From Amylibacter sp. (lineage in GTDB: Bacteria; Pseudomonadota; Alphaproteobacteria; Rhodobacterales; Rhodobacteraceae), in NCBI GenBank assembly GCA_029252725.1, contig JAQXAV010000052.1, forward strand, positions 23,081 through 87,080: DNA of 64,000 bases, read 5' to 3'. Positions 1,253-20,114 of the stretch are shown in pieces. The notes below the pieces were generated by a model. The model saw nothing but the letters and a program-made list of their open reading frames with translations. It was not told the origin of the DNA and made no database searches. Positions within the stretch are counted from its first letter, which is position 1; each line of letters opens with the position of its first letter. Made by a program: the position numbers and the translations under genes.

Positions 1253-1927
1253 CTATTCGTCACCAGGTACGCCATAAGACGGCGCAGCACGCGGGTCGAG
1301 CGCACGTTTCACGTAATCTGCCATCTGCGGCTTGTATACGTCCCACGCGGCAGAAATTGCTTTTATCGGGCAGCCTTCAGTCCAATCACATCGCAAATCC
1401 GCGCTAGGCCATTGCACATCATCACAAATCTGCATTCCTGCTGAATGAAGTGGTCCAGCTTCACCGCCCTCTGCAAGACCAGCCTGCATCGCAGCAATTA
1501 GGCGATCTCCAATGTGACCAGTGGCAGCTTCAAATTCCTTAACAATCGCTTGTGGCACACGGTCATTCGCCAGCAAATTACCTGCAGACAACACATCTTT
1601 TCCATGCGCTTCTGCCCAAATACCAAGAGAGTTCGGACCAGAATGAATGGCGGTATTACCCACCTTATCTATCGCTAAAACTTGGCGATATTCGAGAAAA
1701 GGCGCTTGGTCTTTGACACCTGCGATTGCCTCCTGCGCGGACATGCCTCCTTGAATTAGATCAAGCGCAAAGGGGCCAAGCCGTGGATCAGTTATATTTT
1801 GACTTGCAACCGCACCCACACTCGAGCGCGTATATGCACAGCGCGCGGCAACAGCGGGAGATGACGATGAAATCGCTATTCCAAACATGCCTGTTTTCAC
1901 GCAACGCGCCACCAATGAAAAAGTCAT
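1253..1927 (-). CDS. DUF1028 family protein (Ntn-hydrolase-like)
   Basis: N-terminus MTFSLVARC..GMFGIAISSSSPAVAARC, plus ASQNITDPRLG, GNLLA and GGEAGPLHSAG motifs. ATG at 1927 overlaps the upstream stop (ATGA). Confidence 0.85.
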   Translation of the reverse strand: MTFSLVARCVKTGMFGIAISSSSPAVAARCAYTRSSVGAVASQNITDPRLGPFALDLIQGGMSAQEAIAGVKDQAPFLEYRQVLAIDKVGNTAIHSGPNSLGIWAEAHGKDVLSAGNLLANDRVPQAIVKEFEAATGHIGDRLIAAMQAGLAEGGEAGPLHSAGMQICDDVQWPSADLRCDWTEGCPIKAISAAWDVYKPQMADYVKRALDPRAAPSYGVPGDE

Positions 1928-2337
1928 GGGATCACAGCCGTACCATCGATTTCGACCAACCATTCGGGCCGTGCAAGCGCTTGTACCACCAGCCCCGTAG
2001 ATACAGGATGCACCTCTTTGATGTATTCGCCAATGGTACGATAGATCACCTCTCGGTGGCGCACATCAGTGATGTAGACAACAATTTTAACAAGGTGCTC
2101 CATCTCACCACCCGCTTCTTTGATCAACTGACGGATGTTCTGCATCACTTTATGAGTTTGTTCCGCAGGGTCATGGCTGTCGATGTTCACAGCATCGTCC
2201 AAATTTTGTGGACATTGACCGCGCAGATAGACTGTTTTGCCACCCTGCGTGACAACAGCCTGACACAAATCATTATCAAGTTTCTGTTCCGGATAGGTCG
2301 CCGCAGTATTGAATTTGCGAATGCGAGTATGTGCCAT
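1924..2337 (-). CDS. Rid (YjgF/YER057c/UK114) family protein
   Basis: 137 aa with LVKIVVYITD and PVSTGLVVQALARPEWLVEIDGTAV motifs. Confidence 0.85.
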   Translation of the reverse strand: MAHTRIRKFNTAATYPEQKLDNDLCQAVVTQGGKTVYLRGQCPQNLDDAVNIDSHDPAEQTHKVMQNIRQLIKEAGGEMEHLVKIVVYITDVRHREVIYRTIGEYIKEVHPVSTGLVVQALARPEWLVEIDGTAVIP

Positions 2338-2451
2338 GATCGTTCCTCAAATATGCAGAGCAAAGTGACGCTAACCTTACGCAGACCTGGTGCAAACGAC
2401 TAGCCCTTTTTCGATTTATAAACTGTGGTTGGTTTGCAATGACACGACCTG

Positions 2452-3156
2452 TCAGTGCCCAAAATACGCTGCAGCCAACCTTTCATCATTCGCCAGCTCT
2501 GACGGCGCACCCGAGGCAGCAATATGACCATTTTCCATAACGTAAACCTTTTCGGCAAGTGTCATCGCAAAATTTGCATTCTGCTCGGTCATGACAACCG
2601 TCAGACCGAATTCACCGCGCAAACGCCGCAGAACTTCGGCAATTTCTAAACAAACCTTCGGTGCGAGGCCAATAGTTGGCTCATCAACCAATAATAATCG
2701 TGGAGACGACATTAATGCACGGCCCAACGAAACCATCTGCCGCTCTCCACCTGATTGGGTCGAGGTTTCCTGATCTTCGCGCTCAGCCAATCGTGGGAAC
2801 AAAGTGTGAATCATACCCATATTATTTTCGATATCATCGCGGGCAGTATAGCTGCCAACCAAAAGGTTGTCGCGCACCGTCATGTATGGGAACAAATTAA
2901 ACCGCTCAGGAGCGTAGCCAATCCCACGTTTCACCACATCCGCTGTAGATTTTCCGACGAGCGACAAACCATCAAACCGCATATCCCCCGTCATTTTGGT
3001 TAATCCCATAATACTATCAAGTAAAGTCGATTTCCCCGCACCATTCGCACCGATCAATGCAATCGCACCGCCCTCTTCCACGTCAAATGATACGTTATGC
3101 AATGCTTGCGCTTTGCCGTAAAAAGCGGACAAGTTTTCAATCTCTAGAAATGCCAT
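2452..3156 (-). CDS. livF: Liv-type (HAAT) ABC transporter ATP-binding subunit
   Basis: Walker A GANGAGKST, signature SGGERQM, LLLVDEPTIGLAP. Confidence 0.85.
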   Translation of the reverse strand: MAFLEIENLSAFYGKAQALHNVSFDVEEGGAIALIGANGAGKSTLLDSIMGLTKMTGDMRFDGLSLVGKSTADVVKRGIGYAPERFNLFPYMTVRDNLLVGSYTARDDIENNMGMIHTLFPRLAEREDQETSTQSGGERQMVSLGRALMSSPRLLLVDEPTIGLAPKVCLEIAEVLRRLRGEFGLTVVMTEQNANFAMTLAEKVYVMENGHIAASGAPSELANDERLAAAYFGH

Positions 3157-3887
3157 TACGCTTCCCCCAGATAGGATGCACGTACCTCATCGCTGGTTAT
3201 GACGTCTGCGTACGAACCTTGCGAAATCATACTGCCATGGTTGATGGCAATGGCAGTATCCACCAGAGGTTCCAGCGCTTTCAGATCATGGCTAACGATC
3301 AGAAATGTCATCCCATCAGAACGCATCTTTTGCACCAAATCACTGATCATTGCGATTTCGGCTACAGTCAGGCCTGCGAAGACCTCATCAAGCAACAGCA
3401 CTTTCGGGTCTGTCGCCATAGTCCGCGCCATTTCTAGTTTGCGCAAATCGCCCATCGACAGCTCCGCTGGGGTGCGCTCAAGATCATCTTCGGAGAAGCC
3501 GACGGAAAGCGCTAGTTCTAGCTCGCGATCACGGTTTGGACTATTCAAGATCATACCGAGAACACTGTCAGGCATTAGCCCAACTCGAATATTCTCGGCC
3601 ACTGTCATGTCAGAAAATGGTCGAGGCACTTGATATGTACGACTTACTCCACGGCGAATACGTAAGGGCGTAGACAGATTTGTGATCTCCTCAGTCCCTA
3701 ACTTGATCGAGCCCGACGTTTGGCGATGCTCACCCATAACCTGACTAAAAACAGTTGTCTTTCCCGCTCCGTTTGGCCCAATCAGTCCAACGGATTGCCC
3801 TGCCTCAATCTCGAACGACAAATCATTCGTCGCAGTCAGGCCCCCAAATTTTTTCACCAGATTGGTGACGGTCAACGACATGCTCAT
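3156..3887 (-). CDS. livG: Liv-type ABC transporter ATP-binding subunit
   Basis: KKFGGLTATNDLSF, GPNGAGKTT, LLLDEVFAGL, VSHD. Confidence 0.85.
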   Translation of the reverse strand: MSMSLTVTNLVKKFGGLTATNDLSFEIEAGQSVGLIGPNGAGKTTVFSQVMGEHRQTSGSIKLGTEEITNLSTPLRIRRGVSRTYQVPRPFSDMTVAENIRVGLMPDSVLGMILNSPNRDRELELALSVGFSEDDLERTPAELSMGDLRKLEMARTMATDPKVLLLDEVFAGLTVAEIAMISDLVQKMRSDGMTFLIVSHDLKALEPLVDTAIAINHGSMISQGSYADVITSDEVRASYLGEA

Positions 3888-4825
3888 GACCGCGCCCTTA
3901 CTTTGATCCAGCTTTGATTGATAATCTCATAGATCCCTTTGGGTTGGTACATATACAATAGCAATGCCACCCCACCATAAATAAAATAACGCTCTGCACC
4001 TGGCAGGTAAGGCCGCAGATATTCCAGCAGAAAGGTCAGAAAAAAAGCGCCTATTATGGGCCCAATCGTCGTGGATGCCCCGCCAATCAAAGCGGCTACA
4101 ATAATCGTAAATACAAAGTTGATATCAAACAATGCACGCGGCGCTATGGACCCAAGGTAGTGTACATACATTGCGCCCCCGAGCCCCGCAATCATCGCAC
4201 TTAATAGAAAAGCAAACAGCTTGAGCCGTGTCACAGACAGCCCCGAGCCCTTCACCGCTTCTTCATTCATTCCAATGGCAGACAGCGCAGTGCCGATACG
4301 CGTGCGCATCACAAGCCAGACACTAAAAGCAACAATCACCATCAAAGTCAGCGACATGTAATACCCATTCACTGCCCCACGCGTCAGCGTTGGCAGACCC
4401 GACATCCCACGTGTGCCACCCGTAAGATCGGGCCTTACAACTTGGACGAGTTGATAGATTAATTCCATATATGCCAGCGTAATCAGCGCAAAATAACTGC
4501 CTTTGATGCGCAAAGCCGGTAAAACAACAATCAAACCACCAATCATGGTCACGCCCACCGCAATTGGAATGGAAAGTTCCAAAGGAAAATCGAAGCGCTT
4601 AGTTAATATGGCCGTGGTGTACGCACCAATCCCAATCAAAAATGGATGCCCAAAACTTACGTACCCTGTGCGCCCAGACAGTACATCCCAACTGATCGCA
4701 AACACCGCCAAAAAATTCGCAAAAATGATGATCCGCAGTGTACCTTTGGACACCAGTTCGGGGAGCAGAAACATGAACCCAACGAAGCCAGCCCAAGCCA
4801 CAAAATGATACCAACGCAATCCCAT
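3884..4825 (-). CDS. livM: Liv-type ABC transporter permease (LivM-like)
   Basis: SWDVLSGRTGYVSFGH, LRIKGSYFALITLA, GGTRGMSG motifs. Start moved to MGLRWYH (4825), just after the livH stop. Confidence 0.8.
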   Translation of the reverse strand: MGLRWYHFVAWAGFVGFMFLLPELVSKGTLRIIIFANFLAVFAISWDVLSGRTGYVSFGHPFLIGIGAYTTAILTKRFDFPLELSIPIAVGVTMIGGLIVVLPALRIKGSYFALITLAYMELIYQLVQVVRPDLTGGTRGMSGLPTLTRGAVNGYYMSLTLMVIVAFSVWLVMRTRIGTALSAIGMNEEAVKGSGLSVTRLKLFAFLLSAMIAGLGGAMYVHYLGSIAPRALFDINFVFTIIVAALIGGASTTIGPIIGAFFLTFLLEYLRPYLPGAERYFIYGGVALLLYMYQPKGIYEIINQSWIKVRARS

Positions 4826-4827
4826 GG

Positions 4828-5679
4828 CTAAAGTTCCTCTCGTCCAAAGAGGCCCTTGGGCCGTAAAATTAAAACCGCAATGATCAGCACCATGGTCATC
4901 ACTCCACGAAGCTCGGGCGCGATAAAGGCAGATGTCATTACCTCCATAAACCCAATAATATGTGCTACAATGAGCGTACCAATAATTGACCCGATACCAC
5001 CCACAATCACAACTGCAACAGCTATAATAAGTGGCGCAACCCACATGCCAGGATATAGCTGTGTGTAACTGGCAAAGAACACACCCGAGACCGCGCCAAG
5101 CATCCCTGAAATCCCCCACGTGATCATATTGATGCGATTTGCGTCAATCCCGGAAATAGCTGCACCTTTAGGGTCCATCGACACTGCTTGCATGGCTCGA
5201 CCCGTATGGGTTTTACGTACAAACAGATAGAGAGAAATGAGGATCACCCAACTTGCCACCGCCGCAAACAAATTCGAATATGGGATTGCTGCGCCACCAA
5301 TACGTTCAACTCCCGGAATGATCGGCAGCAAAATTTTGGAACTATCGCCAAATAATAAGACGATACCTGCTTGCAAAACAACGGCAAGGATCAGCGACGA
5401 AATTTCAACCGCCACATGGTCGCCCTTAAGCGGTTTCACAAGCAAACGATATTTTAACAAGCCCATTAGGCAACCAAGGATCGCGGCTAAAAGAACGCCT
5501 GCAATTTTGGGCATTCCAAGTGTTTGCGCAAAATAGAAATATGTGTACCCGCCGATCAGCAAATATGCGCCATAGGCAAGGTTAAGGATACGTCCAACAC
5601 TAAAAATCAGCGTGAACCCCATCGCAATCAATGCGTATAGCCCGCTCAGCAATAGTCCTTGGATCAGGATTTGCGCCAT
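4828..5679 (-). CDS. livH: Liv-type ABC transporter permease (LivH-like)
   Basis: GLLLSGLYALIAMGFTLIFSVGRILNLAYG, TGRAMQAVSMD, VIVGGIGSIIG. Start set at MAQILIQ. Confidence 0.85.
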   Translation of the reverse strand: MAQILIQGLLLSGLYALIAMGFTLIFSVGRILNLAYGAYLLIGGYTYFYFAQTLGMPKIAGVLLAAILGCLMGLLKYRLLVKPLKGDHVAVEISSLILAVVLQAGIVLLFGDSSKILLPIIPGVERIGGAAIPYSNLFAAVASWVILISLYLFVRKTHTGRAMQAVSMDPKGAAISGIDANRINMITWGISGMLGAVSGVFFASYTQLYPGMWVAPLIIAVAVVIVGGIGSIIGTLIVAHIIGFMEVMTSAFIAPELRGVMTMVLIIAVLILRPKGLFGREEL

Positions 5680-5708
5680 AAAATCATGCCTATAAGAGAA
5701 ATCATTGA

Positions 5709-5735
5709 GGACGGCGCGAAGTGTCCGCGCCATCC
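5709..5735 (-). terminator. GC-rich hairpin after the substrate-binding gene (terminator or mRNA stabiliser)
   Basis: Minus strand GGATGGCGCG-GACACTT-CGCGCCGTCC, 10-bp stem with one G.U pair, between SBP and permease genes. Confidence 0.55.
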
Positions 5736-5746
5736 ATCAGGAAGAA

Positions 5747-7036
5747 TTACTTCTTAACCCAGCTAGGGAGGGAAAATGTCGTTGTTGCAAATTCAGGCGG
5801 ATAGACCACCCCAACACTGCCATCTTCTTTCCATTGCACAACAACCATGGACGGCGCCGCATCTTCATAAGGTGCGGTTAAGTCAAACAGAGCATTATGC
5901 GGATAAGTGCGGCCCGTGACCGGTTCAACGGTATCTTTGTCCCAAAAACCGTAGCGTAGGACCAATTTACCATCTTTTTCCAGCGTAAGGTCCTGCTTCT
6001 CCATTGCTTCAGACCATTTTTTTACATCGCCAAAACCACCAGCTTCTTCAGCTGCTGCCATGGCTTGTTTCATGCCATAATAAGCATTGAAACCATTGAA
6101 GTGCGGCATCATTGGCCGCGACTTATATTTAGTTTGGTAGGCCTTAACAAAAGCTTCAGACGTTGGATCCAGCGCGTAACCAACAGACGGAACAGGAGAC
6201 AACGTAGAAATTCCCCCGCCTTGTCCACCGGTATCTTCCCAGTACTCCATCCCAAGCGCTGATACATTCACACCTGTCATTCCCATTGGCACTTGCAGCT
6301 TCACATACTGCGATGAAATCACCTGAGAGTTCACAGAAGACACCTGATAAATGAAGTCTGCACCAGACGCTTCTGCCTTAGAAAACAGCGGTGCAAAGTC
6401 ATTTGTGTTGATGTCATAAGTGATGATTTCTTTCACCTCAATCCCTGCCACAGGGCCAAGCGCCTCTGTTACCAGACCCGTAATTGCACCACCAAAAGCT
6501 GTGTCTTCAGCCAAAATAACAACGCTTTCCCAACCCATTTCTTTCTTGAGAACATCCGCACCAAAATTGATGTAGAGCGTTGCTAAAGCTTCATCTGACG
6601 CGATGTTCATGAAATACGGCGCCATGGTTTCTGGGTCTTCAACCACCATATCAATGATGCCGATGTAAGACGTCCATGTATCAAGTGTCGGAATTTGGAA
6701 TTCCTGCATTCGAGGTAACCAGCCCAAGGATACATCGTCGATGGAACCTGAAATGATAAAATCCACCTCTTCGGTTTCGGCGAGATATTCATAGGCTTTC
6801 ACGCCTTCAGTCACGTCTTCGCCAGTATCAGCACTGACCAAAACAATCTTTTCGCCCATTACACCACCGTTGGCGTTTAACTCTTCAATTGCAATCTCTG
6901 CGCCGCGAAGCGTGGATAAGCCTGTATCAGACGACAAAGATCCAATAAATCCCACTTTGATATCTGCGAAAGTAGCTGAACCAAGTAGCAGCGCACTCAG
7001 TGTTACCGTTGAAAACACAGTTTTCTTTAATTGCAT
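5747..7036 (-). CDS. Liv-type ABC transporter periplasmic substrate-binding protein, ligand unknown
   Basis: Signal peptide (MQLKKTVFSTVTLSALLLGSATFA), IKVGFIGSLS..GAEIAIEELNANGGVMG, first gene of the permease/ATPase operon. Confidence 0.85.
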   Translation of the reverse strand: MQLKKTVFSTVTLSALLLGSATFADIKVGFIGSLSSDTGLSTLRGAEIAIEELNANGGVMGEKIVLVSADTGEDVTEGVKAYEYLAETEEVDFIISGSIDDVSLGWLPRMQEFQIPTLDTWTSYIGIIDMVVEDPETMAPYFMNIASDEALATLYINFGADVLKKEMGWESVVILAEDTAFGGAITGLVTEALGPVAGIEVKEIITYDINTNDFAPLFSKAEASGADFIYQVSSVNSQVISSQYVKLQVPMGMTGVNVSALGMEYWEDTGGQGGGISTLSPVPSVGYALDPTSEAFVKAYQTKYKSRPMMPHFNGFNAYYGMKQAMAAAEEAGGFGDVKKWSEAMEKQDLTLEKDGKLVLRYGFWDKDTVEPVTGRTYPHNALFDLTAPYEDAAPSMVVVQWKEDGSVGVVYPPEFATTTFSLPSWVKK

Positions 7037-7082
7037 AAAAATCTCCCTTGTTCTGATGAGACGGAAAATCTCCCAACTCCGT

Positions 7083-7098
7083 CGTATACAGTATACAG
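7083..7098. promoter_or_regulatory. Putative GntR/FadR-type operator upstream of the ABC transporter operon
   Basis: CGTATACAGTATACAG, tandem GTATAC units also seen at 14097 and 19328. Confidence 0.6.
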
Positions 7099-7363
7099 TG
7101 CACATAGTCAGATTCATTGCAACACTGGATTTTAAGGACTTTCAGCGGCTGAAGTTTCTAACACTCAGTATTTCGACATCTTGTTTTAGCACGCATACAA
7201 CCAATGATTTCTGCGAAAGGCATATTAAAATAAAAATATTTTCCTTCGATGGCAGTTGCAAATTTACACAAGCCATAAGCAAAAAAGTTATTTTCCATCC
7301 GTTTGAATCATTAAAACTTCAACATTAGTAACAAATAGGATACCAAAGAGAACCAATAAAAAT

Positions 7364-7771
7364 TTAATAGTGAATATTGCCTTCTTCGTCGTGTATAATC
7401 GCATCCACATCGATTTCTACCATCATACCAGGCTGAGTTAGTCCTGCCTCAACACCCGTCATCACAGGATCAATGCCCTTAAATACCTCCCCATGGGCTT
7501 TCACCAAACCCCCTGCAGCCGACATATCTGTGATATATGCCCTAGTCCGCACGACGTGGCGCATCTCTGCCCCCACTTCGCGCAATGCTCCTTCAATGCG
7601 GTCAAGGATGTAAACGCTTTGCGCGTAACAGTCGTTAGGTGCATGCAGTTTACCACTCGGCTCAATCGCTGTAGTCCCAGCGATATAAACAAATGGCCCG
7701 ACGCGTTTCGCACGAGAATAGCTACCGATCTCTTCAAATCGTCCACCCGAATTCCACCTACGAAGTGTCAT
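7364..7771 (-). CDS. Rid (YjgF) family protein, last gene of the BMC operon
   Basis: GYS-like GSYSRAKRVGPFVYIAGTTA, VVRTRAYITD, MMVEIDVDA. ATGA overlap with the mdh-like gene. Confidence 0.85.
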   Translation of the reverse strand: MTLRRWNSGGRFEEIGSYSRAKRVGPFVYIAGTTAIEPSGKLHAPNDCYAQSVYILDRIEGALREVGAEMRHVVRTRAYITDMSAAGGLVKAHGEVFKGIDPVMTGVEAGLTQPGMMVEIDVDAIIHDEEGNIHY

Positions 7772-8946
7772 AGGCCAAGCCGCGTGCGAATAGCCTCGGC
7801 CGCGCTGTGCAAAGCGTTGGTTTCATCAGGTGTAAGTCGTATTTCCTCTACGCTTACCAACCCTGTAGCACCCAGATGCGCAGGCACACCTAGCACCACG
7901 CCAGACATACCATATTCACCTTGGAGCATCACTGAAACAGGCACGGGGCCCACCTTTGCGCCGCGAATGTGATCCATTAATTCAACCGAAGAATGCGCGG
8001 GAGCTATCGTGGCTGAACCTGACTTCTTAATCGCAACAACCTGTCCACCCCCCGTGATCGCGTCCTGTACGCAACCCGAAATTTGTTCATCGGATAAAAA
8101 CCGCTCCAACCGCCGTCCTTTAATGCGCGCCAATGACGTAATTGGAGCCATTTCATCCCCGTGACTGCCTAATGTGATCGCAGACACATCATCAGGCGTT
8201 ACACCGGCCGCCATTGCCAACGCATTGCGGAAACGCGAACTGTCAAGCGTCCCTGCCATCCCAAGAACCCGTTCGCGCGGGAACCCTGTAGCCCGAAGCA
8301 TTTCAACCGTCATCTCATCAAGCGGATTGGTAACAACAATCACTATTGCATCGGGCGCAGAAGTTTTAATAGCCTCTCCAGCTGAGTGAATAACCCGTGT
8401 GTTTACATCAATCAGATCAGCCCGCGTCATACCGGGACTTCGGGCACGACCTGCAGTCACGACAACTAGATCAGCCCCTGCAACCAACGTCAAATCTTCG
8501 CCGCCCACACACCGCGCCTTTACACCCGTAATACCACTAGCGTGGTTGAGGTCGAGCGCTAAAGCCTCTGCCATTCCGGGTGCTATATCAATCAGTGAGA
8601 TCTCTTCCGCCATATCCGCAATGGCTGCTAGATGCGCGATATTACCACCAACACCGCCAGCACCAACCAGCGCAATCTTAGAAAACCGCCGAGCGGTACG
8701 TTTGACAATAGCCCTCGGCGCAACCCATTTTGGCGAACGCCGAAAGAGCCCCCGCCGCATTGCTGTTCGACCATCCGTCCTTACCACTGCTGGTTTTTCG
8801 AGCGGCCCTTCGACCAGCTTGATTCCCAATCTCGCAGCTGTTTCACGCGCTAAGTCTGTAACAATATCGCTCGGCAAAACTTCAAAGACAATGCGGCTGT
8901 GTTTTCGCGCATCCTCAATATGTTCTGACCCTACGATGCGTGACAT
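7768..8946 (-). CDS. Malate dehydrogenase (LDH-like MDH) with about 88-aa N-terminal extension
   Basis: KIALVGAGGVG Rossmann motif, TAGRARSPGMTR (Arg at the MDH specificity position), VTNPLD, LDSSRFR, GSHGD catalytic motifs intact. Confidence 0.85.
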   Translation of the reverse strand: MSRIVGSEHIEDARKHSRIVFEVLPSDIVTDLARETAARLGIKLVEGPLEKPAVVRTDGRTAMRRGLFRRSPKWVAPRAIVKRTARRFSKIALVGAGGVGGNIAHLAAIADMAEEISLIDIAPGMAEALALDLNHASGITGVKARCVGGEDLTLVAGADLVVVTAGRARSPGMTRADLIDVNTRVIHSAGEAIKTSAPDAIVIVVTNPLDEMTVEMLRATGFPRERVLGMAGTLDSSRFRNALAMAAGVTPDDVSAITLGSHGDEMAPITSLARIKGRRLERFLSDEQISGCVQDAITGGGQVVAIKKSGSATIAPAHSSVELMDHIRGAKVGPVPVSVMLQGEYGMSGVVLGVPAHLGATGLVSVEEIRLTPDETNALHSAAEAIRTRLGL

Positions 8947-10945: not shown

Positions 10946-10946
10946 A

Positions 10947-12460: not shown

Positions 12461-12484
12461 TGTTTTTCTCCTAAATGACAGTGA

Positions 12485-12754: not shown

Positions 12755-14061
12755 CAGAAGTTCCCCAGATAACGGTCAAGTTCGATCTGTGTAACTTGGT
12801 TGTTGATAAACTCATTATAAAAATTCAATTCCCGCTCGCACATTTGCAAATAGATTTCCCACTGTGTTTCTCCCATAACGTCCTTGAGCCACGCAGACCC
12901 GCGGGCAAGATCAATTGCAGTGCCTAAATCCGTTGGGATCGGAGCTGCACGTTGAGATTCATAAGCATTGCCCAGCTCACATTCATCGGGCTCTATACTC
13001 TGCTCAATACCATCCAAACCCGCTGCAATATCAGCAGCCAGTAACAAATATGGATTAGCATCTGCACCCGCGTCACGCTTTTCGATCCGTGTGGCTGTGT
13101 TAGACCCTTGAATCACGCGCAAACCGACAGTGCGGTTGTCCAATCCCCAAGCTGTGTTGATCGGACAAAACGTGTAAGGCTGACGGCGACGGTACCCGTT
13201 CACTGTAGCAGAACCACAAACAGACGCTTCCGCCATCCGCTTTTGCAAACCACCCAAAAAATGTCGGCCCATCTCACTCAACTCACCCTTATTTGCGAAG
13301 ACGTTCTTACCGTTTTCCCAAACTGAATAATGCGTATGGAACCCATTGCCACTCTCCTCAAAGAATGGCTTTGCCATAAAGGTCGCCTTGTAATCGTGCG
13401 CAGATGCCAGCTGCTTTACCAAAGTGCGGAATTCAACCGCACGATCTGCAGACAACATTGCTTCGCCGTAACGTATATTCACCTCAACCTGGCCGGCCGC
13501 ATACTCCGGATTAGACTGCTCGATTGGGATACCGTACTCATTAATTTGTTGGCGGATCGGACCAAGCACATGCTCTAACTCCGCTGAACGATCAAGACCA
13601 TAAACACCGATCCCCCGGTCTTTTGGCAAATTTGTTTCGGGGTCAAGCAGATAGAATTCGAGTTCCGTACCAACTTGTACCTGAAAGCCCATCTTTTCCG
13701 CACGCGTCAACTGTCGTTTCAAAACGTTGCGCGGATCAATCGGTAATTCGCTGTGATCCATTGCTTCAGAACGCCCCATGCACATCGCCACACCCGGCTC
13801 CCAAGGCAACTCTACAGGTTGTGTCATCGGAAACATGTGAAAATCAGGGTAGCCATTGTCAAAGTTCACATAGGGTGTGTCCCAGACATCGCATGTCATA
13901 TCGATCGCGAACAAAGCGATAGAATAAGCATTTCCGTTCTTACAAATATTGTCCCAATGAGTTGCAGGGATGCGCTTTCCACGCATTATTCCACACATAT
14001 CTCCTAAACCCATTACAACAGTATGCGTTCCCTCTGGTAATTTAAAGCTTTGATTAGACAC
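12754..14061 (-). CDS. Glutamine synthetase family gamma-glutamylamide ligase (PuuA/PauA-like), first gene of the BMC operon
   Basis: D..GIMRGKRIP, ELEFYLL, EYAAGQVEVNI, SGNGFHTHYSVW, WGLDNRTVGLR, RIEKRDAGADANPY. The GS glutamate-flap 'EAP' is replaced by 'FCP'. GTG start with GGGAG upstream; TGATG overlap with the BMC-P gene. Confidence 0.85.
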   Translation of the reverse strand: MSNQSFKLPEGTHTVVMGLGDMCGIMRGKRIPATHWDNICKNGNAYSIALFAIDMTCDVWDTPYVNFDNGYPDFHMFPMTQPVELPWEPGVAMCMGRSEAMDHSELPIDPRNVLKRQLTRAEKMGFQVQVGTELEFYLLDPETNLPKDRGIGVYGLDRSAELEHVLGPIRQQINEYGIPIEQSNPEYAAGQVEVNIRYGEAMLSADRAVEFRTLVKQLASAHDYKATFMAKPFFEESGNGFHTHYSVWENGKNVFANKGELSEMGRHFLGGLQKRMAEASVCGSATVNGYRRRQPYTFCPINTAWGLDNRTVGLRVIQGSNTATRIEKRDAGADANPYLLLAADIAAGLDGIEQSIEPDECELGNAYESQRAAPIPTDLGTAIDLARGSAWLKDVMGETQWEIYLQMCERELNFYNEFINNQVTQIELDRYLGNF

Positions 14062-14096
14062 ATTTTTCTCCCTGTCCTACAGTCCTTGCTATCAAA

Positions 14097-14118
14097 CTGT
14101 ATTCTGTATACAGTATCC
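14097..14118. promoter_or_regulatory. Putative GntR/FadR-type operator in the divergent promoter of the BMC operon and the flavoprotein gene
   Basis: CTGTATTCTGTATACAGTATCC, containing the perfect palindrome CTGTATACAG within three 7-bp-period units. Confidence 0.65.
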
Positions 14119-14147
14119 ATAAATACAGTTTCCGCAAGGATTTTCTG

Positions 14148-15290
14148 ATGTCGAAAGCTAACATTATAATAGTCGGTGGGGGAATAGCTGGCGCCATGAC
14201 CGCGCTAAACCTCCAACGCAATGGCGAGCGTGTGACTCTCATCGATCGATGGGAGCCCGGTCATCCCCGTGCTGCCTCGACCGACTATAACCGCGTTATC
14301 CGCGCCATCTCCGGTCGTGATGAATTCTACACTAGATGGGCACGCGAAAGCCGCACGCGCTGGCTGGAACTTCAAACTGAGACTGGCCAGAAACTAATGT
14401 ATGAATGTGGCGCTCTTATCCTCGCCACTAGGGGCCACTGTGACTGGGAAGACGCCACCGCTACCACCTTCGACCGTGTTGGTGTCCCCTACTACAAACT
14501 CAGCAAAGAGGAAGTGCAACAACGTTTTCCACAATTCAAAGTGGACGAAATCGAATACGCCTTGTTTGAACCTGAAGCCGGCCTCCTCATGGCGCACCGC
14601 TGTGTAATCACCGCCATTGACCTATTCAAGAAACTTGGCGGCACGGTCAAACGCGAAATCGTCACAACAGACGCAACCGAACGCCCAATGGTTAACGGAA
14701 AGCCGCTAGAGGCAGACGTGATAATCGTTGCTACAGGCGCTTGGATGGCAGAAATGTTTCCAAAAACAATCAAACCAATCAGTGCAATAATGGGAATAAA
14801 CGTGCTTTACACTTCTACCCCTGACGGATCCGATGCGTTCGACATGGATAACATGCCTTGCTGGATCGATCATGGCCAAGGTTCATTCGGCATCCCAAGT
14901 TCGGAGGGATCAGGCGTCAAAGCCGCCGTTGTTATTCCAAACACACCTATCGATATTAACAACGACGAACGTTTGATCGAAAAACAATCGCTCAACAAAA
15001 CCCGCCAATATATACGTCACCGACTCCCGGGCCTTGAAGGACAACGCATTGTGGACAGTAAATTTAATCAAGTCATCTTAACGCCCGACACACATTTTAT
15101 CGTCGACTGGCATCCCAAACATAAAAACGTCCTGCTCGCTGGCGGTTGTTCGGGACACCTGTTCAAACACGGCCCAATCTTTGGCGAATTTACTGCTGGG
15201 GTTGCCATGAAAAACTATGGCACAGCCGACCGTTTCAAAATCGCGGGCCGCCGCAAACTCTCTCCTAAGGAGAGCCCAAGTGGACGTTAA
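14148..15290 (+). CDS. FAD-dependent amine oxidase, monomeric sarcosine oxidase / N-methyl-amino-acid oxidase family
   Basis: IIIVGGGIAG FAD motif, AASTDYNRVIR, TPDTHFIVDWHP, GCSGHLFK. Confidence 0.8.
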   Translation: MSKANIIIVGGGIAGAMTALNLQRNGERVTLIDRWEPGHPRAASTDYNRVIRAISGRDEFYTRWARESRTRWLELQTETGQKLMYECGALILATRGHCDWEDATATTFDRVGVPYYKLSKEEVQQRFPQFKVDEIEYALFEPEAGLLMAHRCVITAIDLFKKLGGTVKREIVTTDATERPMVNGKPLEADVIIVATGAWMAEMFPKTIKPISAIMGINVLYTSTPDGSDAFDMDNMPCWIDHGQGSFGIPSSEGSGVKAAVVIPNTPIDINNDERLIEKQSLNKTRQYIRHRLPGLEGQRIVDSKFNQVILTPDTHFIVDWHPKHKNVLLAGGCSGHLFKHGPIFGEFTAGVAMKNYGTADRFKIAGRRKLSPKESPSGR

Positions 15291-15563
15291 GACTTAGTGC
15301 TGGCAACCAATAAAAACCTCAGCCTTCGGACAGATAAAGATAAACAAACCTCTGAACATAATTGCTTGAGGCCACCCATGCCATTGCCAAAAAGTAAATA
15401 TCTCTGCTTCAGCCCCACTCAAAGACCGCTTCAATTTGGAGAATAACAGCTAGCTTTCGATCGGTTTAGGCACTTTTGCTTAGGTCTGACAAACGAGCTT
15501 AGGGATGCGTCAGGCTAGGATGTGACATCTTTTTGAATACCGACGACACGGATCAAAATAAAA

Positions 15564-16271
15564 TTATAGATTAGCCGCGTGCACGCGAAAGAATTTGGCT
15601 ACTTTTTCAGTCATTAAATCAGCTTTCACGTCTCCTGCGTCAAAGCTGGCCAGGGCGGCTGCCATTTCCGCATCGTTCGGAAAACCTGACTGGCCTTGCG
15701 CACGCGCAAACACATCCGAAATGTGCTTCTTCGTATGTTCGGGATGAAATTGGACACTGGCAGCTGGAAAGTCATATTCTAACGCACCCACTGGACAGTA
15801 ATCCGCTATCCCCGTGACCTTAGCATTTGGGGGCACTTGGGTGACCTGATCCTGGTGCCACACATGCGCGTCCACCTCAATACCATTGAGATCAAATTGA
15901 CGCACGCCAACAACGTTGCCACCCAAAGTCTTTTCAGCCTTACCTCCAAACGTATCTGCCATGATCTGATGCCCAAAACAAATTCCGAAGATCGGCTTAC
16001 CCACCACTTTGGTGTTCCGTAACAATTGGCGCAGCGGCTCCATCCACGGCGTATCATCGTAAACACCAAACTCTGACCCAGTCAGCAACAGTCCATCAAA
16101 CGTATCCAGTCGCGGCATGGGCGCGCCACCCTCCGCCACATCAATCCGCGCAAATTCCGCATCAGACATCGCAGGTGCGATCCACTCGACAGTTTGCTCC
16201 CCAACGCTGGGTAATCCCTCCAACATTGGAACTGGATGTCGTGTCAGATCGAGAACGGCAATTCTCACCAC
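15564..16271 (-). CDS. Class I glutamine amidotransferase (possible gamma-glutamyl hydrolase)
   Basis: LTGS, nucleophile elbow GICFGHQ, WHQDQV, QFHPE catalytic His-Glu. Confidence 0.85.
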   Translation of the reverse strand: MVRIAVLDLTRHPVPMLEGLPSVGEQTVEWIAPAMSDAEFARIDVAEGGAPMPRLDTFDGLLLTGSEFGVYDDTPWMEPLRQLLRNTKVVGKPIFGICFGHQIMADTFGGKAEKTLGGNVVGVRQFDLNGIEVDAHVWHQDQVTQVPPNAKVTGIADYCPVGALEYDFPAASVQFHPEHTKKHISDVFARAQGQSGFPNDAEMAAALASFDAGDVKADLMTEKVAKFFRVHAANL

Positions 16272-17689
16272 TCATAGGCCCTATCAATTCCAGCCATCTT
16301 CACCCCCGTAAAAGCAGAAGCTTCAAAAGACAATGCACGCAGATCTTCAACCTCTAAGTTATGTACCGATGATTTACCACATGCCTTAGCCAATGCCGTG
16401 ATTTCCATCGTCATCGCTGTCAGATACCGCGCCACACGTTCGGCACCCGCGTGGGGGTCCATGCGCTTCTCCAACTCTGGATCTTGCGTTGCCACGCCAA
16501 CTGGACACATCCCTGTATGACAGTGGTGACAAGCCCCTGGAGATGTGCCAAGCTTCGCGTAATCTTCTAAATAACGGGGCGAATTACAGCCCATTGCGAT
16601 CATCGCCGCATTTCCAATCATTACCGCATCTGCGCCCAAGGCGATCGCCTTGGCCGCATCGACACCTGATCGAATACCGCCCGCCGCAACAAGCGACACC
16701 TTATCCGACATCCCACATTCATCCAGACTTTCTCGCGCTGCACGAATGGCCGACATATTCGGAATACCTGTATGGTTAAGCAGAAGTTCAGGCGACGCAC
16801 CAGTGCCGCCTTCCGCCCCATCTACCACGATAATATCAGCACCAGCCTTTGCCGCAACCGCCACATCGAACCGTGGACGCGTTGCACCCATCTTTATGGA
16901 AATTGGCACCTTATAGTTGGTCGCAATCCGCAGCTCTTCAATTTTTACAGCCAGATCATCGGCACCAAGGAAGTCTGGGTGTCGAATTGTCGACCGCTGA
17001 TCCACGCCTTCAGGCAAAGTGCGCATCTTTGATACGCGCGGGGACACTTTCATCCCAAGCAGCAAGCCACCCGTTCCAGGCTTTGCGCCCTGCCCTACAA
17101 CAATCTCGAGCCCATCCGCGCGACGCAGATGTTCCAGATCAATTCCATATCGGGCGGGTGACATTTGATAAACAAGCCTCTGCGAAGCCTCCCGCTCCTC
17201 TTCGAGCATCCCACCTTCACCCGTGCAGGTCATTGTTCCAACTTTGGATGCACCGTAACCTAACGAAGCTTTTGCAGATGCAGACAATGCACCAAAAGAC
17301 ATCGACGCGATATAGATTGGAATTTTTAGTTCGAGCGGATTTTCAACAATCCCACGTCCACCACCTAAAATGGTTGTTGTATCACACTTCTCGCGGTAGC
17401 CTTCTAACGGTAACCGCGTCATCGTTGCGGGCACAAACGTCAGGTCATCGAAAGTTGGCATCCGTTTATTAAAGGAATTATAGCCACGCACCTGATAACG
17501 CCCCAGCTGAGCTAATGCATGCACTTCCGAAATCGCTTCGGGTGTCCAGCGAGCTGAACCACCTTCGTCATAAGATGCGGGAACACCTGCTGGACGACCT
17601 TCTACAGCACCCGCATCTTTAAATCGAATTTCATCCTCGGGCGGCAGCTCGAATGGATAATCATATGGTTTGCTTAGATCATGAGCCAT
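16265..17689 (-). CDS. FMN-binding glutamate synthase domain protein (N-methylglutamate synthase subunit C, MgsC/GlxD-like)
   Basis: MSFGALS, TGEGG, GQGAKPGTGG, DGAEGGTGA, GGIRSG.D, Fe-S motif CHHCHTGMCPVGVATQD. Confidence 0.85.
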   Translation of the reverse strand: MAHDLSKPYDYPFELPPEDEIRFKDAGAVEGRPAGVPASYDEGGSARWTPEAISEVHALAQLGRYQVRGYNSFNKRMPTFDDLTFVPATMTRLPLEGYREKCDTTTILGGGRGIVENPLELKIPIYIASMSFGALSASAKASLGYGASKVGTMTCTGEGGMLEEEREASQRLVYQMSPARYGIDLEHLRRADGLEIVVGQGAKPGTGGLLLGMKVSPRVSKMRTLPEGVDQRSTIRHPDFLGADDLAVKIEELRIATNYKVPISIKMGATRPRFDVAVAAKAGADIIVVDGAEGGTGASPELLLNHTGIPNMSAIRAARESLDECGMSDKVSLVAAGGIRSGVDAAKAIALGADAVMIGNAAMIAMGCNSPRYLEDYAKLGTSPGACHHCHTGMCPVGVATQDPELEKRMDPHAGAERVARYLTAMTMEITALAKACGKSSVHNLEVEDLRALSFEASAFTGVKMAGIDRAYEW

Positions 17690-18366
17690 GCGCTTGCGTC
17701 CCTGCTTTCAAAATACCATAGGCGCTGGCCGGATACCAGTTTACGCCATTCCCGTGATGTGTCCACCAAGCCCAAAGGATCCAAAATAGTGTCCACTTCT
17801 GCAACTTCTTCAGCTGTAGGCTCAACTGCATGGGCATCCACGCCCAAACTTTCAATTTCGCCCGCAACCCAAATCTCACCTTCCCACAAGGCATCAGCGC
17901 AGCTTTCACCCGCACCACCCAGCGCAATGATCTTACCGCTATGGGACATAAATCCAGACTGGTACCCAATCTTGCCTTCAACCACAATATTGCCGCCCTT
18001 CATGGCGACCCCAACGCGCGGTCCTGCATCACCTTTGACGTGAATCGTCCCGCCCATCATGGCCGCACCACAGGACATGCCTGCGTAGCCACCCACGGTG
18101 ATGTGCCCTTTGGACATTCCCTCACCACAGGCCCAGCCAGCATTGCGTTCTATATCGATGGTCGCACCCACATTGAGCCCTCCACAGTAATATCCTGTGG
18201 AGCCTTCAAAACTAATTTTACATCCATCGGGCAATCCAATGCCAAGGTTGTGACGTGACAATGTATTGACCACACGGACTACCTTATCTGAGGCCGCAGC
18301 ATCCTGGATTTCCTCATTAATTTCTTTTATGTGACGCTTACCAACCTCGATGATATGTTCGCTCAT
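17674..18366 (-). CDS. Glutamate synthase GXGXG domain protein (MgsB/GlxC-like)
   Basis: GSTGYYCGG, GWACGEGMSKG, repeated G-x-A-G beta-helix units; sits between the GATase II and FMN-domain genes. Confidence 0.85.
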   Translation of the reverse strand: MSEHIIEVGKRHIKEINEEIQDAAASDKVVRVVNTLSRHNLGIGLPDGCKISFEGSTGYYCGGLNVGATIDIERNAGWACGEGMSKGHITVGGYAGMSCGAAMMGGTIHVKGDAGPRVGVAMKGGNIVVEGKIGYQSGFMSHSGKIIALGGAGESCADALWEGEIWVAGEIESLGVDAHAVEPTAEEVAEVDTILDPLGLVDTSREWRKLVSGQRLWYFESRDASAWLMI

Positions 18367-19307
18367 GCTGCTATGCTCCGATTGTTAACACCCCACAGCC
18401 CAGTCAAAGACGGTCCGTCATGGTTGATCACATCACACTCATTGCTGAATACACGGCGCACGGCTTGTTCTTCAGTTGCCATTGCTAAATCACCATTTTG
18501 GTCTATCACAACTAACGGCTTCATCGCGAAGCGGTCTTTGGCAAAGCCAACCCCTTCTGTATTCGCAATCATGTAGGTAAAAACTCCATCAATGCTGCTA
18601 ATAGATTTTCTGAGCGCCTGTTCCATACTAAGTCCTGCTTTAATCTGGTCACTAACCCAAACTGCAATTAGCTCGCTGTCGTTCTCGGTTAGGAAGCGGT
18701 AACCTCGACGCTCCAGCTTATCCCGCCACGTATAATAATCTGTGATCTGGCCATTGTGGACAATCGCTACATCACTAAATGGACGCGCCCAAAACGGATG
18801 ACTTGCATTGGGCAGCACGCTAGACTCAGTCGCCAATCGCGCATGTCCTAAACCGTGCGTCCCTTGCATATCATGAACGCCGTGCTTGTCCGCCACTTCG
18901 GCAGAGCCACCCATGTCCTTGATGATCTCAAGTGAGCGCCCACAAGATTGAATTTCAATCCGATCCGTCAACTCATCCGCATCAGCAATCCAAGCGGCCA
19001 GATCGTTGGGATCTTTGATTTCCATACGAAAACAGTAGTGTTTATTAGCATCTTGAACAATCTTTGGCTCAGACAGTAAATCACTACCATTATCACGCAG
19101 AATGTTTGTAAAATCAGCCAAATCGGCATCCATCTGCATCTTACTAAACCCTATTCCCCTCAACACATATCCCACATCGCGCGGTGGGCCATAAATTGCA
19201 AACCCTGTGCTATCGGCTCCACGGTGTTCCTGTGCATCCATTAAGTCGACTAAATCACGGCCAACAGCGCCAACGCCCTGCATTATTCGTCCTGCAATTC
19301 CACACAT
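18363..19307 (-). CDS. Class II glutamine amidotransferase (MgsA/GlxB-like)
   Basis: Start MCGIAG (Cys2 nucleophile), HRGADSTG, GHARLATES, HPF, VHNGQITDY, ENDSE, GFAKDRFAMKP. Confidence 0.85.
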   Translation of the reverse strand: MCGIAGRIMQGVGAVGRDLVDLMDAQEHRGADSTGFAIYGPPRDVGYVLRGIGFSKMQMDADLADFTNILRDNGSDLLSEPKIVQDANKHYCFRMEIKDPNDLAAWIADADELTDRIEIQSCGRSLEIIKDMGGSAEVADKHGVHDMQGTHGLGHARLATESSVLPNASHPFWARPFSDVAIVHNGQITDYYTWRDKLERRGYRFLTENDSELIAVWVSDQIKAGLSMEQALRKSISSIDGVFTYMIANTEGVGFAKDRFAMKPLVVIDQNGDLAMATEEQAVRRVFSNECDVINHDGPSLTGLWGVNNRSIAA

Positions 19308-19327
19308 AAACAGACCCTCCACTTTCA

Positions 19328-19344
19328 TTGTATACTGTATACAG
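19328..19344. promoter_or_regulatory. Putative GntR/FadR-type operator between mgsA-like and gntR genes
   Basis: TTGTATACTGTATACAG; a further CTGTATACG copy lies at 19418-19426. Confidence 0.65.
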
Positions 19345-19451
19345 CCCAATAAAACAGGCAAGGAGAAAATGAGCGCTTGTGACACAGGGGTTTCGCTTGC
19401 CAGTGTATTTGTGGATTCTGTATACGGTTAAAAGGAAATAAAGGACCAAGC

Positions 19452-20114
19452 ATGAGCTTCAAAAGCATTCAACCCGCCCGTCGCCGCTTGGCAGACGAAG
19501 TTTATGACGAATTGATTGAGGCGATTATCCGCCGTGATGTTGGCCCTGGAGACAGCCTTGTTCAAGAAAAGCTCGCGAATGAAATGCAGATCAGCCGCAC
19601 CCCAGTGCGTGAAGCATTGATGCGGCTGGAAAGTGAGGGTGTGCTAGAAGTCTCCAACCGCGGCAGCTTCCGTCTGTATCAAATGGATGATGAAGAAGTC
19701 AAAGAGCTATATCAATCCCGCGCAGCAGTTGAAGGGCAATGCGCACGCATTCTGGCAGTAAACCATACACAAGACGACATCGACACTCTTCGCCACGTTG
19801 TCGAAAAGGAAGAGAATATCCCGGACAAAACAGCGCGAAGCTATTTTGAAGCCAACCGCAACATTCATATGGCCTTTGTAAAGCAAGCCAACAATCGTTT
19901 TCTCATGGATATGTTCAACATGATTTGGGGCAAAGCTTTGGTCTTTCCTCTTTTCGCCACCATTGAGAACGTCAAATTGGAAAAATCACTCGGCGATCAT
20001 ATGCAACTAATAGAAGTCATCGCCAGTGGCGACAAAACCGAAGCACTCGAAGTATTCACAGATCACATTCAAGACGGCTTCGACCTACAAATCAAAGGGT
20101 TGCACGCCAATTAG
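19452..20114 (+). CDS. GntR family (FadR/FCD) transcriptional regulator
   Basis: LADEVYDELIEAI...LVQEKLANEMQISRTPVREAL HTH, FCD-type NRNIHMAF and DHMQLIEVI. Confidence 0.9.
   Translation: MSFKSIQPARRRLADEVYDELIEAIIRRDVGPGDSLVQEKLANEMQISRTPVREALMRLESEGVLEVSNRGSFRLYQMDDEEVKELYQSRAAVEGQCARILAVNHTQDDIDTLRHVVEKEENIPDKTARSYFEANRNIHMAFVKQANNRFLMDMFNMIWGKALVFPLFATIENVKLEKSLGDHMQLIEVIASGDKTEALEVFTDHIQDGFDLQIKGLHAN

Follow-up and report, generated by a model that had tools for sequence, protein, structure and literature searches.

The stretch of DNA analysed here (the window) comprises 64,000 nt from the genome of an Amylibacter sp. of the Rhodobacteraceae (GenBank assembly GCA_029252725.1; contig JAQXAV010000052.1, positions 23,081 to 87,080 of the forward strand); positions given without a contig or locus name are window positions. 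Its first part encodes the shell and enzymes of a bacterial microcompartment (BMC), together with a trio of genes resembling mgsABC (N-methylglutamate synthase), a glutamine synthetase (GS)-like ligase, an amine oxidase of the monomeric sarcosine oxidase (MSOX) family, a class I glutamine amidotransferase (GATase) and a Liv-type importer. An initial annotation, made from the letters alone, had linked these genes into one cluster and proposed an alkylamine pathway that cages its aldehyde. The open reading frames (ORFs) of positions 1-20114 were translated and scanned with Pfam and NCBIfam models, which agree with the placement of every gene it named. Its proposal that the BMC, mgs-like and gamma-glutamylation genes form one functional unit is borne out by their co-occurrence across genomes, by a shared operator and by synteny that crosses phyla. 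The predicted unit (about 2452-20114) contains the following genes:

2452 to 7036, reverse strand: Liv-type ABC importer (PF13458, PF02653, PF00005), made up of a substrate-binding protein (SBP; 5747-7036), permeases (4828-5733 and 3884 to about 4826) and ATPases (3156-3887 and 2452-3156), all on this strand
7364 to 7771, reverse strand: RidA-family protein (PF01042; TIGR00004 45 bits, cut-off 106)
7768 to 8946, reverse strand: LDH-like malate dehydrogenase (MDH), N-terminally extended (NF004863 312 bits, cut-off 283)
8946 to 9569, reverse strand: CcmP-like double-stacking BMC-T(dp) trimer of the gated pore type (NF053796 CcmP 204 bits; PF00936)
9566 to 10945, reverse strand: CoA-acylating aldehyde dehydrogenase (AldDH), EutE/PduP-type (PF00171; TIGR02518 499 bits, cut-off 620)
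10947 to 12134, reverse strand: protein with an opine dehydrogenase fold (OpDH-like; Octopine_DH-like, with a Foldseek match to 1bg6)
12164 to 12460, reverse strand: BMC-H hexamer shell protein (PF00936, 88 bits)
12485 to 12754, reverse strand: BMC-P pentamer (vertex) protein (PF03319)
12754 to 14061, reverse strand: GS-like gamma-glutamyl-amine ligase (PuuA/GlnA3-4-like), first gene of the BMC operon (PF00120, 302 bits)
14148 to 15290, forward strand: MSOX-family FAD amine oxidase/dehydrogenase (DAO), a candidate N-alkylglutamate oxidase, divergent from the ligase (PF01266)
15564 to 16271, reverse strand: class I GATase-type hydrolase (PuuD-like), accessory (PF00117/PF07722)
16265 to 17689, reverse strand: MgsC-like FMN (Glu_synthase) subunit (PF01645, 336 bits)
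17674 to 18366, reverse strand: MgsB-like GXGXG subunit (PF01493)
18363 to 19307, reverse strand: MgsA-like Ntn (class II) amidotransferase subunit (PF13522/PF13537; the ORF runs to 19385, with a Met-Cys start, MCGIAG, at 19307)
19452 to 20114, forward strand: GntR/FadR-type (FCD) transcription regulator, divergent from the trio (NCBIfam GntR-family matches)

The SBP, which the initial annotation began at 7117, most likely starts at 7036, where its Sec signal begins, so that the mature protein would occupy 5747-6966; the second permease (LivM) starts near 4826.

The core of the cluster (shell, AldDH, MDH, OpDH-like and GS-like genes) can be assigned, by the proteins it encodes, to MIC2, a BMC type in the catalogue of Sutter, Melnicki, Schulz, Woyke and Kerfeld (2021, Nat Commun 12:3809; PMC8217296). 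The catalogue's sections on MIC2 give it 22 loci and assign it neither a function nor a signature enzyme. They describe an AldDH without an encapsulation peptide (EP), a pfam02866 LDH/MDH with an N-terminal extension of ~70 residues, a 6PGDH/opine-DH-like protein with a short N-terminal helical EP, and a pfam00120 GS; they place the type in Alpha- and Gammaproteobacteria, Acidithiobacillia and two Actinobacteria, with no satellite loci, and its AldDH nearest to that of MIC1 and next to that of RMM1 (PMC8217296). Every catalogued feature has its match in the window: the shell genes (PF00936, PF03319 and the CcmP-like NF053796), the extension of the MDH (Ldh_1_N begins at residue 90 of 392), the EP-like N-terminal helix of the OpDH-like protein, the AldDH without an EP and the pfam00120 GS-like gene (kept in 79 of the 80 related loci described below), with neither a phosphotransacylase nor an alcohol dehydrogenase. 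A tblastn search of the whole genome found no second set of shell genes, so this is its single BMC locus. The initial annotation thus had the BMC genes right, but did not recognise their core as a catalogued type.

The catalogue's description of MIC2 lists four enzymes only; the trio, flavoprotein, RidA, regulator and transporter go unmentioned in it. That the MgsABC-like trio, the MSOX-like flavoprotein, the RidA-like protein, the GntR regulator with its operator and the importer belong to the MIC2 unit is new here. Our literature search found no paper giving MIC2 a function and none tying a microcompartment to gamma-glutamyl or N-methylglutamate chemistry; relative to this literature, both the extended co-regulated amine module and the pathway hypothesis developed below are new.

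The evidence for a single unit comes largely from other genomes. With the OpDH-like protein as the MIC2 marker, 140 relatives were found in species-representative genomes and 80 of the loci were fetched; presence in each was scored by tblastn of all window proteins, many absences being due to contig ends. Gene order is almost invariant over these loci. The OpDH-like and BMC-H genes are found in all 80, the GS-like ligase in 79, the DAO and BMC-P in 78 each, the AldDH in 77, the BMC-T in 74, the MDH in 71, RidA in 70 and the SBP in 60, with the Liv permeases and ATPases in 55-56. The trio is somewhat less regular (FMN subunit 49, GXGXG subunit 48, Ntn amidotransferase 46), as is the GntR gene beside it (45); the class I GATase is found in 37. 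At the left edge, a DUF1028 gene (1253-1963) that the initial annotation had counted into the cluster is kept in just one of the loci, and the AraC/DJ-1 regulator beyond it, considered as a further member, in none; the limits of about 2452-20114 given above rest on these two counts.

The trio adjoins the BMC genes in 47 of the 64 loci that extend at least 5 kb beyond the flavoprotein gene, and the 14 genomes tested among those with MIC2 but no adjacent trio (14/14) all carry an FMN-subunit orthologue of 86-94% identity elsewhere. In all six places fetched, these unlinked trios are complete, four of them with the class I GATase. The FMN subunit is the most conserved protein of the unit (85-97% identity in related loci). 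The initial annotation had suggested examining co-occurrence across genomes, and this was done in 401 genomes of the same family, evenly sampled at essentially one per genus. The FMN-subunit orthologue is present in 14 and the MIC2 marker in 12, and all 12 marker-positive genomes have the trio (12 with both, 2 with the trio only, 0 with the BMC marker only, 387 with neither; Fisher p = 3e-21). By these distributions, the trio appears to be an obligatory companion of the BMC. The marker is found on 0 PLSDB plasmids.

The gaps within related loci contain no consistent additional enzyme that would point to a substrate; their inserts are heterogeneous, and include short-chain dehydrogenases/reductases, DUF1194 and transposase genes and, as read by eye with no family scan, one each of a malonyl-CoA decarboxylase-like protein, a BCCT transporter and a class-III aminotransferase. 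Most of the 14 genomes tested for an unlinked trio (G001-G014) also encode, besides the BMC-linked orthologue, one or two further FMN-subunit paralogues of 51-55% identity, plus one of 36-38%. There seems to be a small family of Mgs-like synthases in marine Rhodobacterales, possibly with differing amine specificities.

A shared operator is a further line of evidence. A search for the 10-bp palindrome CTGTATACAG, allowing at most one mismatch, gives four matches in the 64-kb window, where 0.91 would be expected, and all four lie at 5′ ends of the cluster's transcription units (no strand is assigned to a palindrome):

7089 to 7098: CAGTATACAG, with the probable SBP start (7036) ~53 bp downstream; kept in 53 of 60 related loci
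14104 to 14113: CTGTATACAG, in the 86-bp divergent spacer between the GS-like and DAO genes; at this site in 75 of 78 related loci
19335 to 19344: CTGTATACAG, just 5′ of the trio; in 42 of 43 related loci
19418 to 19427: a copy with one mismatch to CTGTATACAG, 5′ of the GntR gene

Over the 80 loci, the three promoter regions (SBP, GS/DAO and trio) account for 4% of the sequence but for 220 of the 239 matches to CTGTATACAG (binomial p about 1e-280). Since the motif marks the promoters of all of them, the transporter, BMC operon, flavoprotein, trio and regulator are predicted to constitute a single regulon, of which the GntR protein is presumably the regulator and a candidate repressor.

The same association is found across a phylum boundary. 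Six actinobacterial or metagenomic loci, including those of Nocardioides sp. TF02-7 and a Solirubrobacterales metagenome-assembled genome (MAG), were reached through diverged OpDH-like homologues. All have the trio, DAO, BMC-P, BMC-H, OpDH-like protein and AldDH, and five have GntR (PF00392/PF07729), RidA and the GS-like ligase. In five of the six, the order is APC permease, RidA, GntR (FCD), trio, DAO (divergent), GS, BMC-P, BMC-H, OpDH-like, AldDH, BMC-T(dp) and LDH/MDH. RidA is present, and an APC permease stands in place of the Liv system, in all five that show the upstream flank, so that the type of importer, Liv ABC or APC permease, appears to be replaceable; the six all lack the class I GATase. 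The CTGTATACAG motif is not found in the actinobacterial loci, as would be expected with a different regulator lineage. Proteobacterial and actinobacterial FMN subunits that are linked to a BMC share 70-74% identity, against 53-56% with a canonical MgsC, which argues that the trio is a distinct orthologous group travelling with the shell. Identities across the two phyla are 60-62% for the AldDH, 55% for the MDH, 44-46% for the GS-like ligase and 40-43% for the DAO.

Individual members of this set have features of their own. In the Solirubrobacterales MAG, the MIC2-like operon runs on with genes for an enoyl-CoA hydratase, two acyl-CoA dehydrogenases, an MFS transporter and a TetR regulator (L088:14433-19402), which hints that the acyl-CoA product is longer than acetyl-CoA in that organism. 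A locus from a JGI metagenome (3300054962; L092:933-14740) contains the trio, DAO, BMC-P, BMC-H, OpDH-like, AldDH, BMC-T and MDH genes, with no GS between DAO and BMC-P; further on are a metallo-beta-lactamase-fold protein, a class-III aminotransferase-like lyase and an APH-family kinase (the RMM signature pair), and a second AldDH. In Nocardioides sp. TF02-7 (L087, CP092535.1), the gene calls include a GS-BMC-P fusion of 554 aa (Gln-synt_C + EutN) and an LDH/MDH fused to a GerE/sigma-70-like helix-turn-helix (633 aa), fusions that may be real or artefacts of gene calling. An amidase gene lies there between the trio and the DAO, and a gene for a histone-deacetylase-family amidohydrolase downstream.

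The genome containing the window (2.78 Mb, 99% complete) also encodes a conventional methylamine pathway. Contig C77 has, in order, mgsA, mgsB, mgsC, gmaS and tmm, plus an opposite-strand gene read by eye as tdm (trimethylamine N-oxide demethylase), together spanning C77:1-8766, with the contig beginning inside mgsA. Its GmaS scores 645 bits against TIGR03105 (cut-off 469.6), and its Tmm 807 bits against the trimethylamine monooxygenase model (cut-off 675). The window trio has the domains and the A-B-C gene order of MgsABC, yet belongs to a separate orthologous group: identity to the C77 proteins is 53% for the FMN subunit, 34% for the GXGXG subunit, 30.5% for the amidotransferase and 30% for the ligase. 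By these comparisons, the window trio and ligase are paralogues, not orthologues, of the genome's methylamine enzymes. Methylamine, one of the substrates named in the initial annotation, is thus unlikely, since the canonical gmaS-mgsABC-tmm set already covers it; the BMC-linked genes would be expected to act on a different amine.

The ligase is not an orthologue of GmaS. It fails both the TIGR03105 GmaS model (232 bits, cut-off 469.6) and the NF045547 PuuA model (202 bits, cut-off 650). Two features of true GS, the Asp50′ and Glu-flap residues, are missing, and the score stays far under the GlnA cut-off. Among solved structures the ligase comes closest to 5dm3 of Chromohalobacter salexigens (207 bits), compared with 139 bits for the GmaS structure 7cql. 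A gamma-glutamyl ethanolamine route has been proposed for C. salexigens, and 5dm3 may be the enzyme concerned. The ligase also has an N-terminal insertion in common with a PuuA-like copy on contig C20 of the same genome. This third GS-like ligase (31% identical to that of the window) lies at C20:21475-23383 beside a class I GATase (35%), and the two have the look of a PuuA/PuuD-type pair.

MSOX is the best solved relative of the flavoprotein (122 bits), and the equivalents of MSOX R49, R52, K265, H345 and K348 are invariant in 77 orthologues and five actinobacterial copies. The position of Cys315, the site of the covalent flavin, is Asn in 75 of the 77 and Gly or Ser in the actinobacterial copies; Tyr317 is replaced by Val or Ile, and His269 by Val or Asn. 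In MSOX, the carboxylate adjacent to the nitrogen that is oxidised is bound by Arg52 and Lys348. Since these carboxylate-binding and the catalytic residues are kept, an N-substituted alpha-amino acid, such as an N-alkylglutamate, fits as a candidate substrate; a gamma-glutamyl-diamine, with its remote amine, would fit less well.

The class I GATase has an intact GxCxGHQ...HPE triad, with the catalytic GICFGHQ and HPE conserved, and is missing in 43 of the 80 related loci; from this distribution it appears to be accessory and dispensable. The RidA-like protein, in which the canonical Arg105 position is not conserved, is a possible imine hydrolase. The solved relatives of the SBP are weak ones and allow no substrate call, nor do the actinobacterial APC permeases, which match no specific NCBIfam family and have weak scores.

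Among the enzymes associated with the shell, the AldDH has no recognisable encapsulation peptide. Its CxxEQ motif is conserved, and it scores best with acylating models, those of the acetaldehyde type on top; with the PuuC model NF007352 it scores 30 bits. The MDH has an N-terminal extension of ~88 residues, partly conserved over 70 orthologues and without a Pfam match, and has 38% identity with the genome's housekeeping MDH (contig C55). It keeps the equivalents of R102, R109, D168, R171 and H195 (motifs GRARSPGMTR, LDSSRFR and GSHGD). An acylating AldDH makes NADH, the cluster has no alcohol dehydrogenase, and the MDH keeps the residues for oxaloacetate; together these make it a candidate for recycling NAD+ in the lumen, by reduction of oxaloacetate.

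The OpDH-like protein has a predicted AlphaFold2 structure (pLDDT 86.8) with the two-domain opine-DH fold. Its top Foldseek match is N-(1-D-carboxyethyl)-L-norvaline dehydrogenase (CENDH, 1bg6; TM 0.73/0.82, E = 5e-22), whose catalytic His202 aligns to an invariant Glu229; in other BMC-linked homologues this position is E, H, A, N, T, G or D. The N-terminus has a conserved FxxF helix (F5/F8) followed by a variable linker, and resembles an encapsulation peptide. It is probable that the protein is a shell-targeted adaptor or scaffold, or an enzyme of altered chemistry, and not a working opine dehydrogenase. A role as an N-alkylglutamate dehydrogenase was also considered and rejected: the non-BMC relatives that keep the His are found in unrelated contexts and lend it no support, and the variability of the catalytic position in BMC-linked homologues speaks against it.

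These observations can be combined into a pathway along the lines of one of the two models in the initial annotation, in which an amine, once gamma-glutamylated, is transferred to glutamate and its oxidation yields an aldehyde, which the AldDH converts to acyl-CoA while the MDH recycles NAD+. This is our preferred reading, as it explains the obligatory components most economically, and we would give it about an even chance; the chemical steps, the identity of the amine and the set of proteins inside the shell are all what we infer from protein families, conserved residues and gene context. A primary amine would be imported by the Liv-type ABC system (by the APC permease in Actinobacteria), and the GS-like ligase would use ATP to convert it to a gamma-glutamyl-amide. 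The MgsABC-like trio, as a BMC-specific paralogue of N-methylglutamate synthase, would then place the alkylamine on the alpha-carbon of glutamate, giving N-alkyl-L-glutamate. The MSOX-like flavoprotein would oxidise the C-N bond on the alkyl side, with hydrolysis of the imine, possibly helped by the RidA-like protein, yielding glutamate and the aldehyde. In association with the three-protein shell, the CoA-acylating AldDH would convert this to acyl-CoA, and the shell-targeted MDH would re-oxidise the NADH with oxaloacetate, in the role that an alcohol dehydrogenase has in classical metabolosomes. As no phosphotransacylase is encoded, acyl-CoA and CoA would have to pass the shell by way of the gated BMC-T(dp) trimer. 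Cargo would most likely be recruited or organised by the opine-DH-fold protein, which has an EP-like tail. In such a scheme the shell would do for an aldehyde of two or more carbons what tetrahydrofolate does for formaldehyde in the methylamine pathway.

The amine itself is most likely a C2-C5 alkylamine or an amino alcohol. We infer this from the acetaldehyde-type scores of the AldDH, the position of its clade near RMM, the additional genes of the Solirubrobacterales locus, the kinase/lyase pair of the metagenomic locus and the transporter scores, each of which is a single-locus or weak-score hint.

Several observations weigh against this pathway. Its weakest point is topology: the flavoprotein comes from a divergently transcribed gene and lacks any terminal extension, and its placement inside the shell is an assumption; were the aldehyde released outside, as it might be, the logic of caging would be undercut. 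Neither the class I amidotransferase nor the opine-DH-fold protein, although the latter is conserved, is needed for it to work. Transporters of the Liv and APC types more often carry amino acids than simple amines, and both types here are weakly closest to branched-chain amino-acid carriers. The two genomes with the trio and without the BMC marker, both fragmented assemblies, also count on this side. Finally, the metagenomic locus without a GS-like gene (L092) suggests that free amine may feed the trio, or that the aldehyde may come from another route.

The alternatives have to be judged against the same evidence. In the other model of the initial annotation (Puu- or ethanolamine-GGP-like), a diamine or amino alcohol would be gamma-glutamylated and its distal group oxidised, giving a caged gamma-glutamyl-aminoaldehyde to be oxidised by the AldDH and deglutamylated by the class I hydrolase. 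The ligase is indeed nearer to PuuA/GlnA-type enzymes than to GmaS, by its scores with 5dm3 and 7cql and by the insertion shared with the C20 copy; the window includes a PuuD-like class I GATase; and gamma-glutamylation of ethanolamine has been described in Streptomyces coelicolor and proposed for C. salexigens (PMC9397018). This model, however, has no role for the obligatory and most conserved trio, and it depends on a hydrolase that is missing in 43 of the 80 loci and in all of the actinobacterial ones. The AldDH, a CoA-acylating enzyme, is unlike PuuC, and the flavoprotein's retention of the alpha-carboxylate-binding Arg52 and Lys348 of MSOX also speaks against it. We consider it quite unlikely. 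Oxidation of an N-alkylglutamate fits better because the trio appears obligatory and the hydrolase dispensable, and because the flavoprotein keeps those carboxylate-binding residues; of that model as originally put, the route is retained, but methylamine as a candidate substrate is not. An organelle resembling RMM is conceivable as well. It would cage propionaldehyde or acetaldehyde from 1-amino-2-propanol or ethanolamine, with the glutamate-conjugate genes serving mainly to capture or detoxify the amino alcohol or an aminoketone and to recover nitrogen. The catalogue's AldDH phylogeny, which in its account of MIC2 puts this enzyme next to MIC1 and then RMM1 (PMC8217296), is consistent with such an organelle, as is the L092 locus, where the RMM signature pair of APH kinase and class-III aminotransferase-like lyase accompanies the trio, the DAO and a core like that of MIC2; the actinobacterial APC permeases, with their weak NCBIfam matches, belong to a superfamily that includes ethanolamine permeases. 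The kinase/lyase pair is absent, though, from the window, from the 80 related loci and from the other actinobacterial loci, and outside L092 the flavoprotein is the only candidate for an aldehyde-forming enzyme in the loci, making this alternative unlikely.

A simpler function in nitrogen salvage might be read from the domains, which are those of GS plus the three of the glutamate synthase large subunit: the ligase and a split GltB-like trio would form a GS/GOGAT-type pair re-assimilating ammonia from a deaminating step, with no N-alkylglutamate involved. Several findings make this very improbable. The ligase is without the ammonium-site Asp50′ and the Glu flap and scores far under the GlnA cut-off, the nearest paralogue of the FMN subunit is MgsC (53%) and not GltB (33%), the cluster contains no GltD-type electron-donor subunit, and the genome has an ordinary GlnA and GltB. 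An accidental adjacency of two independent gene sets, the BMC operon and the amine genes, could be argued from the 17 of 64 loci in which the trio is not adjacent; in view of the strict co-occurrence, the shared operator and the synteny across phyla, chance neighbourhood can be practically dismissed.

The following genes of the window are not counted in the unit. The AraC-family regulator with a DJ-1/PfpI domain (3-839, reverse strand) is absent from the 80 closer loci, and a similar gene is found in the Nocardioides locus (L087:20469-21248). The GlxA protein of the rhizobial glnT-glxBCD locus has the same AraC plus DJ-1/PfpI architecture, which may or may not be coincidence. On the other side, the region at 20111-27198 adjoins the GntR gene and encodes a LacI-type regulator, a TctA/TctB/TctC tripartite transporter, SauS (an acylating sulfoacetaldehyde dehydrogenase; NF047625 667 bits, cut-off 600) and a SauT-like acyl-CoA ligase. 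It resembles a sulfoacetate utilisation module, and is not kept beside the MIC2 loci of other genomes. Further away, and unlinked to the cluster, three genes at 53840-57730 (reverse strand) have the domain pattern of the glycolate oxidase subunits GlcF, GlcE and GlcD (CCG + 4Fe-4S; FAD_binding_4; FAD_binding_4 + FAD-oxidase_C).

The comparative evidence provides the orphan MIC2 with a defined, co-regulated set of enzymes and a short list of testable substrates. Carriers that can be grown in culture include Aliishimia ponticola MYP11, Ruegeria profundi ZGT108, Falsiruegeria mediterranea CECT 7615, Sulfitobacter sediminilitoris, Hoeflea alexandrii and Nocardioides sp. TF02-7. If the proposed pathway is correct, it would represent a new organelle logic, with glutamate as a covalent amine carrier feeding an aldehyde cage, a new form of cofactor balancing inside a shell, and an unrecognised sink for small organic amines in marine Rhodobacterales, Granulosicoccaceae, Hyphomicrobiales and soil Actinobacteria. 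The minimal three-protein shell and its MDH recycler would also be of engineering interest.

Among known systems, the N-methylglutamate pathway (GmaS, MgsABC, MgdABCD) offers the closest parallel to the front end: a GS-family ligase is followed by a predicted three-gene split-GltB synthase in A-B-C order, and an FAD enzyme of the sarcosine-oxidase kind would come next. The differences are that there is no GmaS orthologue, the window proteins being paralogues (30% identity to GmaS, 53% to MgsC), and that, as the initial annotation had noted, no mgdABCD or folate genes, nor a folate-binding subunit, are found in Pfam and NCBIfam scans of the whole window; MgdABCD is not found in the related loci either. 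Their place is taken by an MSOX-like enzyme of the monomeric type and by a microcompartment that comes with an acylating AldDH. With the MSOX family itself (monomeric sarcosine oxidase, N-methyltryptophan oxidase), the flavoprotein shares the fold, the FAD motif and Arg49, Arg52, Lys265, His345 and Lys348, but it has no Cys315 for 8-alpha-S-cysteinyl FAD and scores under the NCBIfam equivalog cut-offs. The Puu pathway (PuuA-PuuB-PuuC-PuuD) and the gamma-glutamyl ethanolamine pathway (GlnA4, S. coelicolor) likewise combine a GS-like gamma-glutamylating ligase, a DAO-family oxidase, an AldDH and, as in some of the loci here, a class I hydrolase. Here, in contrast, the AldDH is CoA-acylating and BMC-associated and the hydrolase appears dispensable, and the trio has no counterpart there.

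Like the EUT, PDU and RMM metabolosomes, MIC2 would use a PduP/EutE-type AldDH to make acyl-CoA within a BMC shell, with NAD+ recycled inside. Unlike them, it has no lyase or dehydratase signature enzyme, PduL/Pta or alcohol dehydrogenase, so that the MDH is the sole candidate recycler, and its aldehyde would come from an oxidised glutamate conjugate. We suggest tentatively, and at somewhat short of even chances, that MIC2 is an 'alkylamine-utilisation microcompartment': the first metabolosome in which the aldehyde would derive from an N-alkylglutamate, made by a front end of gamma-glutamyl-ligase and MgsABC-like synthase, and the first with malate/oxaloacetate recycling of NAD+ and export of acyl-CoA without an internal phosphotransacylase. 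It would then be a sister to the methylamine pathway that relies on a shell and not on folate, and that takes amines of two or more carbons.

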